This document shows, one piece after another, positions 1-60,019 of a DNA stretch of 60,019 nt (position 1 is the stretch's first letter; every line of letters begins with the position of its first letter). The notes below the pieces were generated by a model. The model saw only the letters and a list, made by a program, of their open reading frames with translations, ran no database searches and was not told where the DNA came from. Made by a program: the position numbers and the translations under genes. The stretch is taken from the NCBI GenBank assembly GCA_034658815.1, contig JAYEFY010000048.1, forward strand, positions 1 through 60,019. The letters run 5' to 3'. Source of the DNA: Patescibacteria group bacterium (GTDB lineage: Bacteria > Patescibacteriota > Minisyncoccia > Moranbacterales > DUUL01).

Positions 1-81
1 TTGCTGTAGATCATTAGTCTGACCAATATAAAATTTGTCGTATTTTTTATTGTACGCAATATAAACAAAAAGGTTTTGCAT
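1..81 (-). CDS. Minimal GIY-YIG nuclease, second tandem copy (only the 5' part is in the window)
   Basis: Bases 1-127 are identical to 333-459 (332-bp offset); ATG at 81 starts MQNLFVYIAYNKKYDKFYIGQTNDLQQ and the ORF runs off the window edge. Confidence 0.85.
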   Translation of the reverse strand, partial: MQNLFVYIAYNKKYDKFYIGQTNDLQQ

Positions 82-85
82 AATG

Positions 86-155
86 TGGGCGCTGAGAGAT
101 TCGAACTCCCGACCTACTGGGTGTAAATCCCGAGTACTCGGGACTCTAACCAACT
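86..155 (-). pseudogene. tRNA-Val-derived fragment lacking the first ~12 nt, with CGACTGG replaced by the perfect palindrome TCCCGAGTACTCGGGA (128-143)
   Basis: Direct comparison with the intact tRNA at 418-491. Confidence 0.85.
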
Positions 156-161
156 TGAACA

Positions 162-413
162 TTACATATTACAGAGTTTCCTATAAAACTGTTTCGATTT
201 TTGTTTTTTAAGAAACCTTTCTCTTCTTACAGTCTCTGAACGTGAGAAAAAACTTTCATAATACAAAATTTTCCATCCACCAGTATATTTTTTTGTGTAA
301 ACAGAAAAACCAGAACAATGTTCCAGTTCTCTTTGCTGTAGATCATTAGTCTGACCAATATAAAATTTGTCGTATTTTTTATTGTACGCAATATAAACAA
401 AAAGGTTTTGCAT
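162..413 (-). CDS. Minimal GIY-YIG nuclease (UPF0213/Slx1-like), 83 aa
   Basis: FVYIAY...FYIGQT motif pair, R (QQRE) and H (EH), conserved helix E (RRERFLK); true start is ATG at 413, directly after the tRNA 3' end. Confidence 0.88.
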   Translation of the reverse strand: MQNLFVYIAYNKKYDKFYIGQTNDLQQRELEHCSGFSVYTKKYTGGWKILYYESFFSRSETVRRERFLKKQKSKQFYRKLCNM

Positions 414-417
414 AATG

Positions 418-491
418 TGGGCGCTGAGAGATTCGAACTCCCGACCTACTGGGTGTAAACCAGTCGCTCTAACCAACTGAGCCAAGCGCCC
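418..491 (-). tRNA. tRNA-Val(TAC)
   Basis: GGGCGCT/AGCGCCC acceptor stem, ACTGG-TTTACAC-CCAGT anticodon arm, GTTCGAATC T loop; CCA not encoded. Confidence 0.96.
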
Positions 492-734
492 TTGTAACAA
501 GAAAAACATAAAATGACCTACTGGGTGTAAATCCCGAGTCCTTGGGACTCTAACCAACTGAGCCAAGCGCCCTTGTAACAAGAAAAACATAAAATGACCT
601 ACTGGGTGTAAATCCCGAGTCCTCGGGACTCTAACCAACTGAGCCAAGCGCCCTTGTAACAAGAAAAACATAAAATGACCTACTGGGTGTAAATCCCGAG
701 TCCTCGGGACTCTAACCAACTGAGCCAAGCGCCC
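492..734 (-). repeat. Three tandem 81-bp units: tRNA-Val 5' half with a palindrome replacing the 5' anticodon-stem strand, plus a 17-nt AT-rich spacer
   Basis: Units 492-572, 573-653 and 654-734 are identical except one base (543); palindromes at 532-547, 613-628 and 694-709. Confidence 0.95.
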
Positions 735-758
735 TTGTAATGGGGCTTTGACCATACG

Positions 759-842
759 TGCCCCGAGAGAGACTCGAACTCTCATGCGCATAAAGCGCCA
801 TGGCCCTCAACCATGTGTGTATACCGATTCCACCATCGGGGC
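759..842 (-). tRNA. tRNA-Leu(GAG)
   Basis: GCCCCGA acceptor, CATGG-TTGAGGG-CCATG anticodon arm, long variable arm, GTTCGAGTC T loop. Confidence 0.95.
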
Positions 843-994
843 GATGTTTTTAAATGCCAAATCTTTATCAATGTTACCGTGTTTTTATATTACGGTCAAG
901 ATTTGAATTTTCACACACAGTAGTTGGGCGCTGTTGCATTGTTTTTTCGTGAGCAATTCTATAGATGAAGAATAAAAAACGAAAATTCAAAATA

Positions 995-4480: not shown

Positions 4481-4978
4481 CTACTTCAGTAAAAATCTCT
4501 TGCTTTTACTCAAATTAATAAAGTCGTCAGCCGCTTCAATAAGCATATGCGAACAGCTTTCTTGGAATGCCAATACTTCAACGCGAACGCCTTTATTAAA
4601 CTGCAGATACTTCACCAATTGTTCATAATCGCCATCTCCACTGACCAGTACGATCACATCAAGATTATTAGCGAGTTTTATAGCGTCTATCGCGATGCCG
4701 ACATCCCAATCGCCTTTTTTCATTCCTCCTTTGAATATTTGAAGCTCCTTTGTTTTGACTTCATAGCCAAGATTTTCGAGAGAAGTGAAAAATTTTTCTT
4801 CAAGCCCTTCTTCTGTACTGATGCAGTAAGCGATTGCGCGAATGAGCTGTCTTCCCGAAACGGCTTCTTTTAAAATTTCTTTGAAGTTTACTTTTTTACC
4901 AAAGAGTACTCGCCCGCTGTAGTACATATTTTGGACATCAACCAGTACCCCGACTCTTTGTTGTGAAAATTTTGCCAT
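4481..4978 (-). CDS. NYN domain (LabA/DUF88) protein
   Basis: LVDVQNMY, KKGDWDVGIAID, LVSGDGDY acidic motifs. Confidence 0.9.
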   Translation of the reverse strand: MAKFSQQRVGVLVDVQNMYYSGRVLFGKKVNFKEILKEAVSGRQLIRAIAYCISTEEGLEEKFFTSLENLGYEVKTKELQIFKGGMKKGDWDVGIAIDAIKLANNLDVIVLVSGDGDYEQLVKYLQFNKGVRVEVLAFQESCSHMLIEAADDFINLSKSKRFLLK

Positions 4979-21200: not shown

Positions 21201-21415
21201 GAGAACTGTTTCTAAACCAGCTTCTTACCTTGCCCTGCCTGCCCTGCCTGTCTGCTAGCAGGCAGGTGGCAGGCGTTAGTCCCGAGTACTCGGAACTAAA
21301 TTTTTGGTTATGTTTCAGCATAAATAATATTTTCAAAGCTGTTGATCGCGCTGTTTGCAAACAGTAATAATAAATAGGCAACAATTTTTAGCAGGAGTTA
21401 GTTTGGAATAGTCCT
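21201..21415. mobile_element. Expanded MITE-like element carrying CCTGCC-type and TCCCGAGTACTCGG-type palindromes
   Basis: Left GAGAACTGTTTCTAAACCAGCTTC, right GCAGGAGTTAGTTTGGAATAGTCC; internal palindromes at 21229-21276 and 21280-21295. Confidence 0.65.
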
Positions 21416-25694: not shown

Positions 25695-25791
25695 TAAGCA
25701 AAAACGCGGTGAAGAACCTTTTGGTTTAATTGAAGTTTATATCGTTTTATGTGTAAGAAATTAGAGCGTTATTTACAATATTGCCGCTTTT

Positions 25792-25947
25792 TTGTCATCC
25801 CGAGTCCCGAGTGCTCGGGATTGAGGGATCACTTCGCGTAAATAAGTTCACAGTCAAGGGATTCCTGCCTACCCTGCCTACCCTGCCTGCCGGCAGGCAG
25901 GGTAGGCAGGGTAGGCTTCTCCCGCTAAAGCGGGATCAGAATGACAA
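25792..25947. repeat. Composite nested REP-like element
   Basis: Outer TTGTCAT...ATGACAA; inner TCCCGAGTGCTCGGGA (25805-25820), perfect 25-bp-arm palindrome (25867-25916) and TCCCGCTAAAGCGGGA (25920-25935). Confidence 0.8.
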
Positions 25948-58222: not shown

Positions 58223-58320
58223 ACAAAAAGGGAAATAGCGCAAACAAGCTATGGCCCCTTTTTTCTTTTGTTATAAGCAAAAAGCTGAAAGTCCAAACGG
58301 ACGAGTAGGCTTTTATCTTT
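58223..58320. repeat. Direct repeat copy B
   Basis: ACAAAAAGGGAAATAGCGCAAACAAGCTAT...TAAGCAAAAAGCTGAAAGTCCAAACGGAC...TAGGCTTTTAT. Confidence 0.8.
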
Positions 58321-58328
58321 TATTTATG

Positions 58329-58474
58329 TATGCTGGGGAGGAGGGATTTTCGCCTCGTCTTCACTAAAGTTCAGACTTCGTTGTCCAGGGCAGCGCTGAA
58401 AGCTGTTCGCTTCCAGCGACACTCGCTTATCTCACTTTGTTCGATGCTCGCTTCTGCCCGTTCGAATCCCTCTC
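58329..58474 (-). repeat. Duplicated tRNA-Gln 3' end plus an inverted T-arm copy
   Basis: 58329-58348 equals 58521-58540; GTTCGAATCCCTC at 58460-58472 is inverted relative to the tRNA T arm. Confidence 0.75.
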
Positions 58475-58524
58475 TCAAAACACACAAACAAAAAACGGAA
58501 CAAGCCTTTTTTCATTTGTGTATG

Positions 58525-58596
58525 CTGGGGAGGAGGGATTCGAACCCCCGAATCACGGGACCAGAACCCGTTGCCTTACCGCTTGGCTACTCCCCA
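58525..58596 (-). tRNA. tRNA-Gln(CTG)
   Basis: TGGGGAG/CTCCCCA acceptor, ACGGG-TTCTGGT-CCCGT anticodon arm, GTTCGAATC T loop. Confidence 0.96.
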
Positions 58597-58745
58597 AGAA
58601 ATATTTTGTAAAAAACTTTGTCCCGTTTCAATCTTGACCACTCTTTTTATCCCATCCAAGCGGTCAGCTTGCCCGCCCGAACGTACCATTCGGTACGGGC
58701 GAGCCCGCCCGTCCGAAGCTTTAACGCAGGCGGGGCTACTCCCCA
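58562..58745 (-). repeat. 184-bp direct repeat, copy 1 (tRNA-Gln 5' half, upstream DNA, and a REP-interrupted tRNA 5' tip)
   Basis: Near-identical to 59097-59280 (535-bp offset). Confidence 0.9.
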
Positions 58746-59002
58746 ATGTTATTTTGTGTAAATAACTCCTTTAGTTGTTGGCGTAAAAATCTTTTTCCTT
58801 CAGTAGTTTTCAGATATCGTTCTCTTCGTTCAGCATCTTGCGATAATAAATATGCTTCGTAATGAATAAGCTTAACAGGTAAACGCTTACTTGTGAACTT
58901 TGATTTTCCAAGTTTATGTTCCTCAACTCTTCTTTTTAAGTTGCTCGTGCACCCAGTATAAATCTGCAAATTATTTAAAAGTAAAATATAAACGTAATGC
59001 AT
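58736..59002 (-). CDS. Minimal GIY-YIG nuclease, 88 aa
   Basis: YVYILL...IYTGCT, RRVEEH, RLPVKLIHYEAY, AERRERYLKT; stop codon supplied by the tRNA-derived TGGGGAGTAG. Confidence 0.9.
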   Translation of the reverse strand: MHYVYILLLNNLQIYTGCTSNLKRRVEEHKLGKSKFTSKRLPVKLIHYEAYLLSQDAERRERYLKTTEGKRFLRQQLKELFTQNNIGE

Positions 59003-59059
59003 TTTGGAATATTTGTATTTAATACCTACAGAAATTTATTGCACTACCGTAGGAACCAT

Positions 59060-59095
59060 CATGTCATTCGACATGATGCCATGTCGAATGACATG
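59060..59095. repeat. Perfect 16-bp-arm inverted repeat whose arms are themselves hairpins
   Basis: CATGTCATTCGACATG-ATGC-CATGTCGAATGACATG. Confidence 0.9.
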
Positions 59096-59096
59096 G

Positions 59097-59280
59097 CAGA
59101 ACCCGTTGCCTTACCGCTTGGCTACTCCCCAAGAAATATTTTGTAAAAAATCTTATCTCGTTTCAATCTTGACCACTCTTTTTATCCCATCCAAGCGGTC
59201 AGCTTGCCCGCCCGAACGTACTATTCGGTACGGGCGGGTCTGCCCGTCCGAAGCTTTAGCGCAGGCGGGGCTACTCCCCA
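59097..59280 (-). repeat. 184-bp direct repeat, copy 2; its tRNA half ends exactly after the anticodon
   Basis: TGGGGAGTAGCCAAGCGGTAAGGCAACGGGTTCTG, then the 59060-59095 palindrome. Confidence 0.9.
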
Positions 59281-59368
59281 AGATTATATCATTCCAAGTT
59301 TGTCGAGGTTCAATCATTTGACGGGGTAAAAATTGCTTCGTGTAGATATAGAAAGTATTTCAGTGCCA

Positions 59369-59417
59369 AGGGATCCTTCGACTTCTCCCGCTAAGCGGGA
59401 TTCACTCAGGATGACAA
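59369..59417. repeat. REP-like element related to the right part of 25792-25947
   Basis: AGGGATCCTTCGACTTCTCCCGCTAAGCGGGATTCACTCAGGATGACAA. Confidence 0.65.
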
Positions 59418-59437
59418 AAAGTAATATGAAGTGAAGA

Positions 59438-60019
59438 TTACTTTTTGGTAATTTTCCCTCCAAACATTTTCATCGCATCGTGGAGAATGTTGTGCTCTTT
59501 GTTGTCTGTGTTTTCGGGAAAATTCATTGATGCACATTCTTTTTCGGTGACAAATGATACTTTCAGCGACGTATCGGTGATTGTATCAACCACTTTTTGA
59601 ACTGTCAATCGATTGTTCAGCTCGGACAGCCTCTCTTTATAAAAGTCGTATTTTGTTTTTATATACAGTGTATTATTCATTATTCCGCATGGAGTACAAT
59701 TTTCCAAAAATGCGTGGATTGAATGATTGTGGGGTTTTACATCTTCTATTATCTTTGACCAATATCCCAGAACATCTTCAAAAGCAATGTTCGAACTTTT
59801 ACTTTTTGAGATATCTGATGGCGGTTTTTCCTGATCATCTGTTTTTTCTTCTACTTCGATTTCGGCCATTGCTTGTTCAACGGAAGTAACAGTCGTTTTC
59901 GGTTCTTGAAGAGTATTTTTTTCCGGAGGGGCCTCTTTTCTTAGAGCTTCCGCTTCGGACGGTTCGCGATCCGGACTATTTCGCATGCCGGCGGTTTCTG
60001 TTGCCGGAGCCGGTACGGC
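59438..60019 (-). CDS. dnaX: DNA polymerase III gamma/tau, C-terminal part (gene starts beyond the window)
   Basis: Pro/Ala/Glu-rich linker, then WSKIIEDVK...HAFLENCTP...FYKERL...AMKMFGG; frame is open to the window edge. Confidence 0.75.
   Translation of the reverse strand, partial: AVPAPATETAGMRNSPDREPSEAEALRKEAPPEKNTLQEPKTTVTSVEQAMAEIEVEEKTDDQEKPPSDISKSKSSNIAFEDVLGYWSKIIEDVKPHNHSIHAFLENCTPCGIMNNTLYIKTKYDFYKERLSELNNRLTVQKVVDTITDTSLKVSFVTEKECASMNFPENTDNKEHNILHDAMKMFGGKITKK

Follow-up and report, generated by a model that had tools for sequence, protein, structure and literature searches.

Anatomy of the tRNA-Val locus

The DNA analyzed here, referred to as the window, is a 60,019-nucleotide (nt) stretch of a Patescibacteria group bacterium (positions 1 to 60,019 of contig JAYEFY010000048.1, assembly GCA_034658815.1). 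At the left edge of the window, an 83-residue GIY-YIG open reading frame (ORF) adjoins a tRNA-Val gene, and the disabled tRNA copies on its flanks share a 16-base hairpin, termed PAL. The parts of this element are a stand-alone GIY-YIG nuclease of about 83 amino acids (aa), PAL, and partial copies of the neighboring tRNA, with exactly one tRNA copy intact. The arrangement recurs at about 160 loci, where ORFs abut tRNA genes tightly, tandem arrays occur, and close relatives differ in having or lacking the gene. We consider it reasonably likely that the locus is a mobile, homing-type Slx1-like nuclease cassette that resides in tRNA transcription units, is expressed through tRNA processing, and is amplified by recombination between tRNA-derived repeats.

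All features of the edge locus lie on the minus strand, and coordinates follow window numbering (Table 1). Read from the promoter side, the order is tRNA-Leu(GAG), three 81-bp units, the intact tRNA-Val, the GIY-YIG ORF, a tRNA copy carrying PAL, and the start of a second ORF. An earlier reading of the letters alone (the original prediction) had proposed the core of this layout, and its description was confirmed throughout: tRNA-Val(TAC) is intact, the ATG of the 83-aa ORF lies 4 nt past the discriminator, and alignment placed a perfect palindrome in a 5'-truncated tRNA copy exactly where the intact gene has CGACTGG. This truncated copy begins 7 nt past the ORF stop, inside the D-loop, and lacks positions ~1 to 12. 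The second, identical GIY-YIG start that had been predicted was also recovered, since positions 1 to 127 equal positions 333 to 459 at 100% identity with a spacing of 332.

Table 1. Positions of the features at the two tRNA-linked GIY-YIG loci of the window
Feature	Position	Strand	Basis
Second GIY-YIG copy, first 27 codons, running off the window edge; equal to 333-413	1..81	-	tblastn, 100% identity to residues 1-27
CATT spacer, from 3' end of the disabled tRNA copy to ATG of copy 2	82..85	-	Sequence
3' arm of disabled tRNA-Val copy (tRNA positions 32-73); equal to 418-459	86..127	-	Alignment
PAL hairpin TCCCGAGTACTCGGGA, perfect palindrome in place of tRNA positions 25-31 (CGACTGG, 460-466)	128..143		Alignment
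5' arm remnant of disabled tRNA-Val copy (D-loop/D-stem, AGTTGGTTAGAG); equal to 467-478	144..155	-	Alignment
GIY-YIG ORF copy 1, UPF0213/Slx1-like, 83 aa plus stop (codons 413..165, stop 164-162)	162..413	-	Pfam PF01541, PDB profile matches, alignment
CATT spacer, from discriminator A418 to ATG (413-411)	414-417	-	Sequence
tRNA-Val(TAC), intact	417/418-491	-	ARAGORN; Rfam tRNA, 72.6 bits; cloverleaf fold
TTACAA (492-497), then three tandem 81-bp units (498-740)	492..740	-	TRF, period 81, 99% identity
tRNA-Leu(GAG), first gene of the presumed transcription unit	758-842	-	ARAGORN, Rfam
Sole sigma-70-like promoter match on the minus strand in 1-1100 (TTGACC-17-TAACAT), upstream of tRNA-Leu	871..899	-	Simple consensus scan
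tRNA-Gln(CTG), intact, downstream of the 88-aa GIY-YIG ORF	58524..58596	-	ARAGORN, Rfam
Divergent GIY-YIG ORF, 88 aa, 36% identity over the tblastn match	58736..59002	-	tblastn
36-nt palindrome after the tRNA-Gln 5' half (positions 1-36), upstream of the 88-aa GIY-YIG ORF	59060..59095

Two components of the window were absent from the original prediction: a GIY-YIG/tRNA-Gln locus at 58.3 to 59.4 kb and the three units of partial tRNA-Val plus PAL at 492 to 740. Each 81-bp unit consists of TTACAA, tRNA-Val positions 1 to 24, PAL, positions 32 to 48, and a 17-nt tail, ATTTTATGTTTTTCTTG. The tail and the next TTACAA form a 23-nt spacer between the tRNA parts of consecutive units, and the three PALs (532 to 547, 613 to 628, and 694 to 709) have GA/TC at the center. 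The spacer ATTTTATGTTTTTCTTG reads ATTTT-ATG-TTT-TTC after tRNA positions 32 to 48; over a short distance, this resembles how relatives' GIY-YIG genes begin after an upstream PAL copy, in both the leader and the initial codons (M-F-F). From their sequence, the 81-bp units may be cassettes whose ORF was deleted.

A 209-aa ORF (162 to 791, minus strand) is open through the three 81-bp units, at 27 codons each, and on through tRNA-Val and the GIY-YIG ORF. It could be reported by gene callers as an artifactual fusion, and such fusion calling may explain why an exact look-up of the 83-aa protein matched no record.

The encoded protein is a minimal Slx1-like GIY-YIG domain

The 83-aa ORF matched Pfam PF01541 (GIY-YIG) with an E value of 2e-12 and a score of 47.7 bits, well above the cut-off of 22.6. 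In the protein alignment (A1), the catalytic positions Y7, Y18, G20, H32, and E65 were invariant and R28 was nearly so; the protein thus has the motifs, the conserved Arg, the His/Tyr, and the metal-binding Glu of the GIY-YIG superfamily. Profile searches of the PDB placed it closest to two UPF0213 structures, 1ywl (Enterococcus faecalis EF2693, E = 1.1e-10) and 1zg2 (Bacillus halodurans BH0048, E = 3.1e-10), followed by chains of the structure-specific nuclease SLX1 (E = 3e-4 to 4e-3). Its build, a single domain within the range of ~80 to 100 aa, is that of the stand-alone UPF0213 or bacterial Slx1-like proteins.

Other collections gave no specific family for the protein among NCBIfam, PHROG, and PADLOC. 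The NCBIfam model for group I intron endonucleases scored 22.8 bits, below its cut-off of 56, and a PHROG homing endonuclease match covered only the first 35 residues. An anti-phage defense system was considered and set aside, as PADLOC returned just a weak, partial UzuA match over ~30 residues (E = 0.003 for copy 1 and 0.001 for copy 2).

The methyltransferase family COG4123 is one that we take to be YfiC/TrmN6, the tRNA1-Val m6A37 methyltransferase; in the literature, the names COG4123 and YfiC/TrmN6 co-occur in papers, no more than that. Bacterial UPF0213-type proteins have been assigned to the Slx-1 cluster, with fusion to or shared operons with a COG4123 methyltransferase and fusion to TrmH (Dunin-Horkawicz et al. 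2006, PMC1564403). The COG4123 and TrmH fusions are an old, unexplained link of the bacterial Slx1-like GIY-YIG family to tRNA.

The cassette recurs beside tRNA genes in several phyla

A survey covering metagenome contigs and a single genome per species yielded 160 loci with 156 full-length copies (individual loci are cited below by number, with the prefix L). The closest protein relatives, at 55 to 69% identity, are from Patescibacteria, and the best GIY-YIG match in the genome collection was 68% identical. These relatives share a syntenic site, rluD-rplS-tRNA-Leu-tRNA-Val-GIY-YIG-PAL copy-tRNA-Phe, and carry a partial copy of their own tRNA-Val before or after the GIY-YIG gene, with the same palindrome at the same place. 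By record title, the loci come from several lineages of Patescibacteria, many families of Bacteroidota, Ignavibacteria, Calditrichaceae, KSB1, Aminicenantia, and Dehalococcoidales.

Proximity to tRNA genes is a general property of the family. A same-strand tRNA lies within 400 nt of 128 of the 156 copies (82%) and within 30 nt of 72. In 22 copies, the ATG falls −1 to +4 nt past the called end of a same-strand tRNA, where called ends are those of ARAGORN and may take in part of the CCA. In 33 copies, the stop codon is inside the next tRNA, as a TAG at positions 8 to 10 or 21 to 23. The tRNA partner follows the protein clade, being Val in Patescibacteria and mainly Asp(GTC), often Pro, in Bacteroidota and Ignavibacteria; Ala, Met, Gln, His, Asn, Leu, and Ile are rarer partners with a few loci each. 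Single-linkage clustering of the tRNA-Asp-type proteins, for comparison of PAL position with clade, lumped 57 copies together.

A common full layout was found in the window and in L008, L092, L011, and L014. It begins with an upstream PAL copy (tRNA positions 1 to 24, PAL, and positions 32 to 4x), followed after 10 to 30 nt by the intact tRNA, after a further 0 to 4 nt by the GIY-YIG gene, and then by a downstream PAL copy (positions a to 24, PAL, and positions 32 to 76). Such copies can mislead annotation. In L085, for example, ARAGORN names the PAL-disrupted tRNA-Val copy at 429 to 511 (positions 1 to 24, PAL, and positions 32 to 76) an 83-nt "tRNA-Pro(CGG)." The elements can therefore produce false tRNA annotations, as well as false long ORFs, in genome work.

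Tandem arrays of two to five same-strand copies occurred at 30 of the 160 loci, with periods of 308 to 394 bp, and the window unit of 332 bp is likewise a head-to-tail unit of tRNA sequence plus nuclease gene. Identity between units within an array ranged from 59 to 100%, indicating that the arrays are real and of different ages. Amplification, which the original prediction had proposed, is thus a trait of the family, but the part of that proposal that read ongoing amplification from the identity at the window edge fared less well.

Full-text searches of the accessible literature turned up no account of a mini GIY-YIG gene that is linked to tRNAs in bacteria and accompanied by a conserved palindrome in tRNA fragments.

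The repeat at the window edge has the signature of an assembly break

The identical overlap had been taken as evidence of active amplification, a claim that could not be upheld. The terminal overlap is exactly 127 nt, and 127 nt is a common maximum k-mer setting of de Bruijn graph assemblers. Four further, unrelated metagenome contigs of the family (L115, L117, L118, and L148) end alike: each has a terminal repeat that is exactly 127 nt long and lies one unit off. Because the chance that a random window cut falls at such an offset is ~1 in 332, the window start most likely coincides with the contig end. Together, the 127-nt overlap and the four contigs with the same ending indicate that the edge identity is probably an assembly by-product, uninformative on the age of the duplication.

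The same logic bears on copy number. Re-entry of the assembly into a 127-mer means a cycle in the assembly graph, which implies no fewer than two ORF starts, the first following the intact tRNA and the second following the PAL copy. As judged from the contig sequence, a minimum of two such starts is therefore likely to be real in this genome. A rather unlikely alternative is that there is no true tandem, copy 2 being a graph loop produced by a strain mixture or chimeric reads in a genome with one tRNA-Val, one GIY-YIG gene, and one PAL copy. An overlap at exactly a typical assembler k-mer length, with the sequence ending there, would fit that explanation, as would the single units of the close relatives L001, L002, and L005 and the lack of any match when the unit junction was sought exactly in metagenome contigs. 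Such a loop would nonetheless need reads connecting PAL, tRNA positions 32 to 73, CATT, and 81 nt of ORF, and a single-unit genome would have flanking DNA, not ORF, after the PAL copy. Moreover, relatives have arrays with diverged units, which are impossible as k-mer loops (L045, 95% identity; L068, 91 to 98%; L161, 93 to 99%).

Public contigs are often broken within these elements (L018, L019, L024, L027, L058, L060, L115, L117, L118, L124, L131, L148, and others), and terminal repeats at such breaks measured 105 to 171 nt, four of them exactly 127 nt. With many loci at contig ends, the elements are a recurrent source of metagenome assembly fragmentation beside tRNA genes.

Expression may be borrowed from the tRNA transcription unit

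Only 4 nt separate the discriminator from the ATG, leaving no room for a promoter or a ribosome-binding site. The one sigma-70-like match in the region lies upstream of tRNA-Leu (Table 1), and a terminator-like hairpin follows rplS at 1022 to 995. The ORF would have no promoter of its own; its transcription would begin at the tRNA-Leu/tRNA-Val promoter, and a nearly leaderless GIY-YIG mRNA would be released when the tRNA 3' end is processed. A start codon a few nucleotides past a tRNA 3' end, with no promoter of its own, is the configuration expected of tRNA punctuation. Across the family, the abutment of ORFs and tRNAs suggests from sequence that RNase Z- or RNase P-type cuts define the mRNA ends.

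Cotranscription with the tRNA and release by 3' processing had been part of the original prediction. That proposal is plausible and gains comparative support from the 22 ATG abutments and the 33 stops within tRNAs; the release itself we infer rather than observe.

PAL is a conserved hairpin that replaces part of a tRNA stem

The palindrome, first regarded as a local oddity, turned out to be a conserved signature of the whole element family. PAL has the form TCCCGA-N4-TCGGGA, usually TCCCGAGNNCTCGGGA, and the window copy folds into a 6-bp stem with a 4-nt loop at −8.2 kcal/mol. Allowing up to two substitutions, 112 matches were found in the first 358 kb of loci, at 63 of 80 loci, where ~1 would be expected by arithmetic on uniform base composition. 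Most of these matches (78 of 112) lie within 100 nt of an ORF end, typically 16 to 40 nt downstream or 18 to 46 nt upstream. Over all loci, PAL occurs within 120 nt of 116 of the 156 ORFs (74%), and on both sides of 24.

PAL does not sit between tRNA bases as an insertion but substitutes 6 to 12 nt of one strand of a tRNA stem. Replacement positions recur, at 25|33 in tRNA-Val and at 22|29, 38|51, 56|66, and 33|45 in tRNA-Asp, and both flanks matched the local tRNA exactly in 105 of 167 PALs. Two PALs can occur in one tRNA copy. Because one stem strand is replaced, PAL copies are unable to fold as tRNAs. A tRNA intron or a functional but odd tRNA was ruled out on the same ground, as the cloverleaf cannot form. 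A palindrome of the P-nucleotide type, derived from the flanks, was likewise rejected on inspection of the sequences, since the PAL halves are not complementary to the flanking DNA.

Among 241 PAL-like sites, 121 had the perfect consensus and 26 were compensated, symmetric variants of five kinds. Mispairs were concentrated at the innermost position, which defines the conserved core as the 6-bp stem TCCCGA/TCGGGA with its 4-nt loop. Clade-specific variants of the TCCCG...CGGGA hairpin also exist, such as TCCCGCCTTAAAGCGGGA, which accompanies tRNA-Pro in Flavobacterium, and, in a different clade, TCCCGAT-N4-ATCGGGA. Sense-strand mispairs showed no excess of G.T over A.C (32 versus 35), so a hairpin acting only as RNA is unsupported. 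The 16-nt PAL stays constant while the linked protein diverges to ~40% identity, which argues that PAL must be functional. The most economical reading of these sequences is that PAL is a site or structure recognized by the nuclease.

The main rival to a homing-type cassette starts from PAL itself. It holds that PAL is a mobile 16-nt "nano-element" and the GIY-YIG protein its structure-specific nuclease, in the manner of REP and RAYT; PAL would enter hairpin-prone DNA such as tRNA stems and persist in redundant tRNA copies or intergenic DNA, with the tRNA duplications being break damage. The substitution of PAL for a single strand in different tRNA stems, at several positions and sometimes twice per copy, fits this picture, as do the compensated variants that preserve perfect symmetry and the fact that the nearest characterized relatives, the SLX1 proteins, are structure-specific nucleases. 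PAL units without a GIY-YIG gene exist (window 492 to 740, L043, and L165), and PAL-like hairpins occur far from tRNAs in the window (21280, 25805, 25920, and 59386), some nested in other palindromes. However, most PALs are not dispersed but lie within 100 nt of a GIY-YIG ORF, solo copies number only ~4 in 60 kb, no known mechanism moves a 16-nt palindrome while removing 6 to 12 nt, and the exact abutment of ORF and tRNA is left unaccounted for. We regard a mobile PAL as unlikely.

Elements have been gained, lost, and exchanged with tRNA sequence

Support for the homing-type cassette comes from loci where the tRNA parts do not belong together. In L092, the acceptor strands of the upstream (GGACGCA) and downstream (TGCGTCC) PAL copies pair with each other, and the intact tRNA between these two halves differs from them (GGACGAT/ATCGTCC, with another T stem). 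From its sequence, this locus looks like one tRNA allele that was split and disabled around an incoming tRNA plus GIY-YIG gene. PAL copies whose acceptor arms are foreign to the adjoining intact tRNA were also found in L007, L008, L010, L011, and L091; for example, the GGATCCT arm of L008 and L010 is that of the genuine tRNA-Val of L091.

A close relative of the window lacks the gene. L165 (GCA_030626045.1, DAOUPS010000003.1) is syntenic with the window over 5.5 kb at ~84 to 86% identity, and it has tRNA-Leu, one degenerate upstream unit with two PALs, an identical tRNA-Val, CATTATGCAAA, and then unrelated DNA. The DNA into which the window's array leads may resemble L165 4752 to 5508. Homology to the window stops at window position 75, and the syntenic site in L165 holds neither a GIY-YIG gene nor a downstream PAL copy. 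From these remnants (4575 to 4760), L165 is probably a loss scar and not a naive empty site. The foreign arms and the absence in L165 together indicate that the element has been gained, lost, and exchanged along with tRNA-derived sequence. Presence or absence among close relatives and exchange of flanks are what is expected of homing genes.

One simple route of entry, Campbell-type integration of a circle with a single PAL copy, was rejected as a general mechanism. It predicts that the host acceptor arm is kept upstream, and the upstream PAL copies of L008, L010, L011, and L092 contradict this.

In the mechanism we favor, the cassette would spread by homing-type double-strand-break repair or by homologous recombination, and portable homology arms would be provided by the conserved D-arm and anticodon/T-arm segments. 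PAL would mark where the resident tRNA copy was broken, acting in cis as a hairpin or a nuclease binding site. Selection would keep one tRNA copy intact, and in at least some loci the cassette may carry its own functional replacement tRNA. Out-of-register repair between the tRNA-derived repeats could then add a unit of GIY-YIG gene and PAL-disrupted tRNA, producing the 332-bp tandem at the window edge. Specifically, the 3' side of a broken intact tRNA would invade the downstream PAL copy on the sister chromosome, restoring the intact tRNA and leaving the layout seen in the window.

Two further explanations do without homing. The GIY-YIG protein could be a nonmobile housekeeping factor for tRNA-locus repair or tRNA quality control, kept in tRNA operons for coregulation, with the tRNA fragments as products of decay. 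The strong same-strand association with tRNAs is compatible with such a role, as are the fusions and operon that tie Slx1-like GIY-YIG proteins to the tRNA enzymes of COG4123 and TrmH (PMC1564403). A housekeeping gene would hardly be present in one relative and absent from another at ~85% identity, occur as tandem and degenerate copies, associate with many tRNA partners, be accompanied by foreign tRNA arms, or occur as two divergent copies at different tRNAs in a single 60-kb window, making this explanation improbable.

The partial tRNA copies could instead be attL/attR-type duplications left by a larger, decayed integrase element, with the GIY-YIG gene as leftover cargo. The direct repeat of tRNA positions 32 to 73 does resemble an att duplication. 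No integrase or recombinase was found among the ORFs in or near the unit, though, and the unit is just 332 bp, its compact layout is repeated in ~160 loci, upstream 5' partial copies exist too, and replacement of internal tRNA segments by PAL is not an outcome of att recombination. We consider this origin very improbable indeed.

Several observations weigh against the homing-type cassette. The 83-aa protein is a catalytic domain alone, lacking the separate DNA-binding domain of characterized homing endonucleases, which sets it apart from the Seg and Mob proteins. Were the intact tRNA gene the target, its resident copy should stay cleavable, and a homing model alone leaves the strong sequence conservation of PAL unaccounted for. 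Relatives were absent from viral contigs, INPHARED phages, and PLSDB plasmids, so that a vehicle for spread across phyla is not evident in these collections. The second unit of the window is visible over 127 nt only and rests on assembly-graph logic. Finally, of the 46 long ORFs in the window, only 7 have a Shine-Dalgarno motif; such motifs are rare in this genome, so that the lack of one before the ATG is uninformative as to leaderless translation.

A second locus at tRNA-Gln and other palindromes in the window

A second element of like design lies around tRNA-Gln(CTG) at 58300 to 59450 on the minus strand (Table 1). The TAG stop of its 88-aa GIY-YIG ORF forms positions 8 to 10 of a tRNA-Gln 5' fragment. 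The sequence TTGGGGAGTAGCC occurs twice at this locus, each time followed by a GC-rich insert of ~147 nt (~59272 to 59130 and ~58745 to 58600), and a 3' tRNA-Gln fragment is interrupted by an insert of ~120 nt (58480 to 58340). Rfam searches of PAL copies and of the GC-rich inserts returned tRNAs and sub-threshold noise only, the inserts being without a match.

The palindrome pattern has 6 occurrences in the window, compared with an expectation of 0.04, including those at intergenic positions 21280 and 25805. In this genome of 39% GC, GC-rich palindromes cluster in intergenic DNA at 21234 to 21295, 25790 to 25935, and 59386 to 59400. Solo PAL-like hairpins in these clusters are TCCCGAGTACTCGGAA, TCCCGAGTGCTCGGGA, TCCCGCTAAAGCGGGA, and TCCCGCTAAGCGGGA, some of them nested in motifs of the type GTCATCC(T/C)GAG...GGATC. 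Long CCTGCC.../...GGCAGG palindromes are present at 21234 to 21266 and 25867 to 25916.

Another palindrome, CCTGCCTGCCGG(C/T)AGGCAGG, lies near GIY-YIG loci of different phyla (L011, 2175 to 2230; L013, 2419 to 2438; L015, 3018 to 3037). In L011, an intact tRNA-Ile(TAT) has upstream of it a partial tRNA-Ile copy that this palindrome splits at position 22, with no GIY-YIG gene adjoining. This sequence arrangement suggests that palindrome-disrupted tRNA copies extend beyond the GIY-YIG elements.

Relation to known systems and implications

As a probable free-standing selfish nuclease gene, the cassette has its closest known analogue in SegB, a phage-encoded protein that exceeds 200 aa and includes a DNA-binding region. 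SegB of phages T4 and T6 is a free-standing GIY-YIG homing endonuclease encoded in a tRNA gene cluster, and it cuts in tRNA-containing sequence (PMC2330249; PMC13096335). In T6, a 718-bp unit of tRNA-Tyr plus segB undergoes tandem amplification that depends on the nuclease and on recombination, via short homology between tRNA and gene end (PMC13096335). This offers an experimental precedent for how, by analogy, the arrays described here may have grown. Both systems place a GIY-YIG gene among tRNA genes and form tandem units of tRNA plus nuclease gene. However, SegB is phage borne, whereas the cassette is chromosomal and its relatives were not found in phage, viral, or plasmid collections. SegB also multiplies functional tRNAs, while the extra tRNA copies here are disabled, and a conserved hairpin is not described for SegB.

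The UPF0213 proteins of known structure (EF2693, 1ywl; BH0048, 1zg2), together with Escherichia coli YhbQ and Bacillus subtilis YazA, share the domain, size, and single-domain build of the cassette protein. They differ in that function, adjacency to tRNA genes, a hairpin, and mobility are not described for them in the accessible literature, and we know of no tRNA gene beside yhbQ or yazA.

Two organellar systems offer partial parallels. The Allomyces atp6 case, reportedly described by Paquin et al. in 1994, is said to involve a free-standing organellar GIY-YIG ORF at the end of an essential gene that carries a replacement segment. There, as in the L092 halves around an intact tRNA and GIY-YIG gene, a functional replacement is brought in and the resident segment is left as a displaced pseudo-fragment; unlike the cassette, the target is a mitochondrial protein-coding gene, the nuclease is far larger, and there are no junction hairpins or tandem arrays. 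In Neurospora mitochondria, conserved GC-rich PstI palindromes reportedly flank tRNA genes, according to Yin, Heckman, and RajBhandary in 1981. Like PAL, these are short, conserved, GC-rich, linked to tRNAs, and built with a GTAC-like center, in an AT-rich genome that also has GIY-YIG genes; their sequence is different, they flank intact tRNAs instead of replacing parts of copies, and they have no demonstrated linked nuclease.

Among bacterial systems, REP/RAYT and IS200/IS605 combine a short conserved hairpin showing compensatory change with one small nuclease gene and hairpin-only derivatives. Their enzymes are HUH/Y1 transposases, whereas the enzyme here is a GIY-YIG protein with no HUH assignment, and REPs occur as hundreds of dispersed intergenic copies, not inside tRNA copies. 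In its predicted expression, the cassette resembles the tRNA punctuation of the mitochondrial model and leaderless mRNAs, as the ORF starts 0 to 4 nt past a tRNA 3' end or ends in the next tRNA. By analogy, RNase Z- or RNase P-type cuts at these tRNA boundaries would set the mRNA ends. Punctuation is a mitochondrial model, however, with no established counterpart among such protein genes in bacteria.

As a tentative proposal, these loci could represent an undescribed class of ~330-bp mobile element that pairs a structure-selective Slx1-like GIY-YIG nuclease with a 16-nt hairpin and invades essential tRNA genes across five or more bacterial phyla. The proposal includes splitting of the resident tRNA by the hairpin, retention or supply of one functional tRNA, borrowing of the tRNA promoter and processing, and tandem expansion. 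If true, the elements would be among the smallest protein-coding mobile elements, an 83-aa nuclease plus a 16-nt hairpin, and would represent a new way for selfish DNA to occupy an essential single-copy gene without host death. They would also provide a bacterial case of a protein-coding mRNA set by tRNA processing. For the widespread UPF0213/Slx1-like family, whose structures are solved, the proposal would supply a testable function and substrates, namely, the PAL hairpin and tRNA-gene DNA. It would be the first biological role for the long-orphan UPF0213 (YhbQ/YazA-like) proteins and would give a reason for their link to tRNA enzymes.

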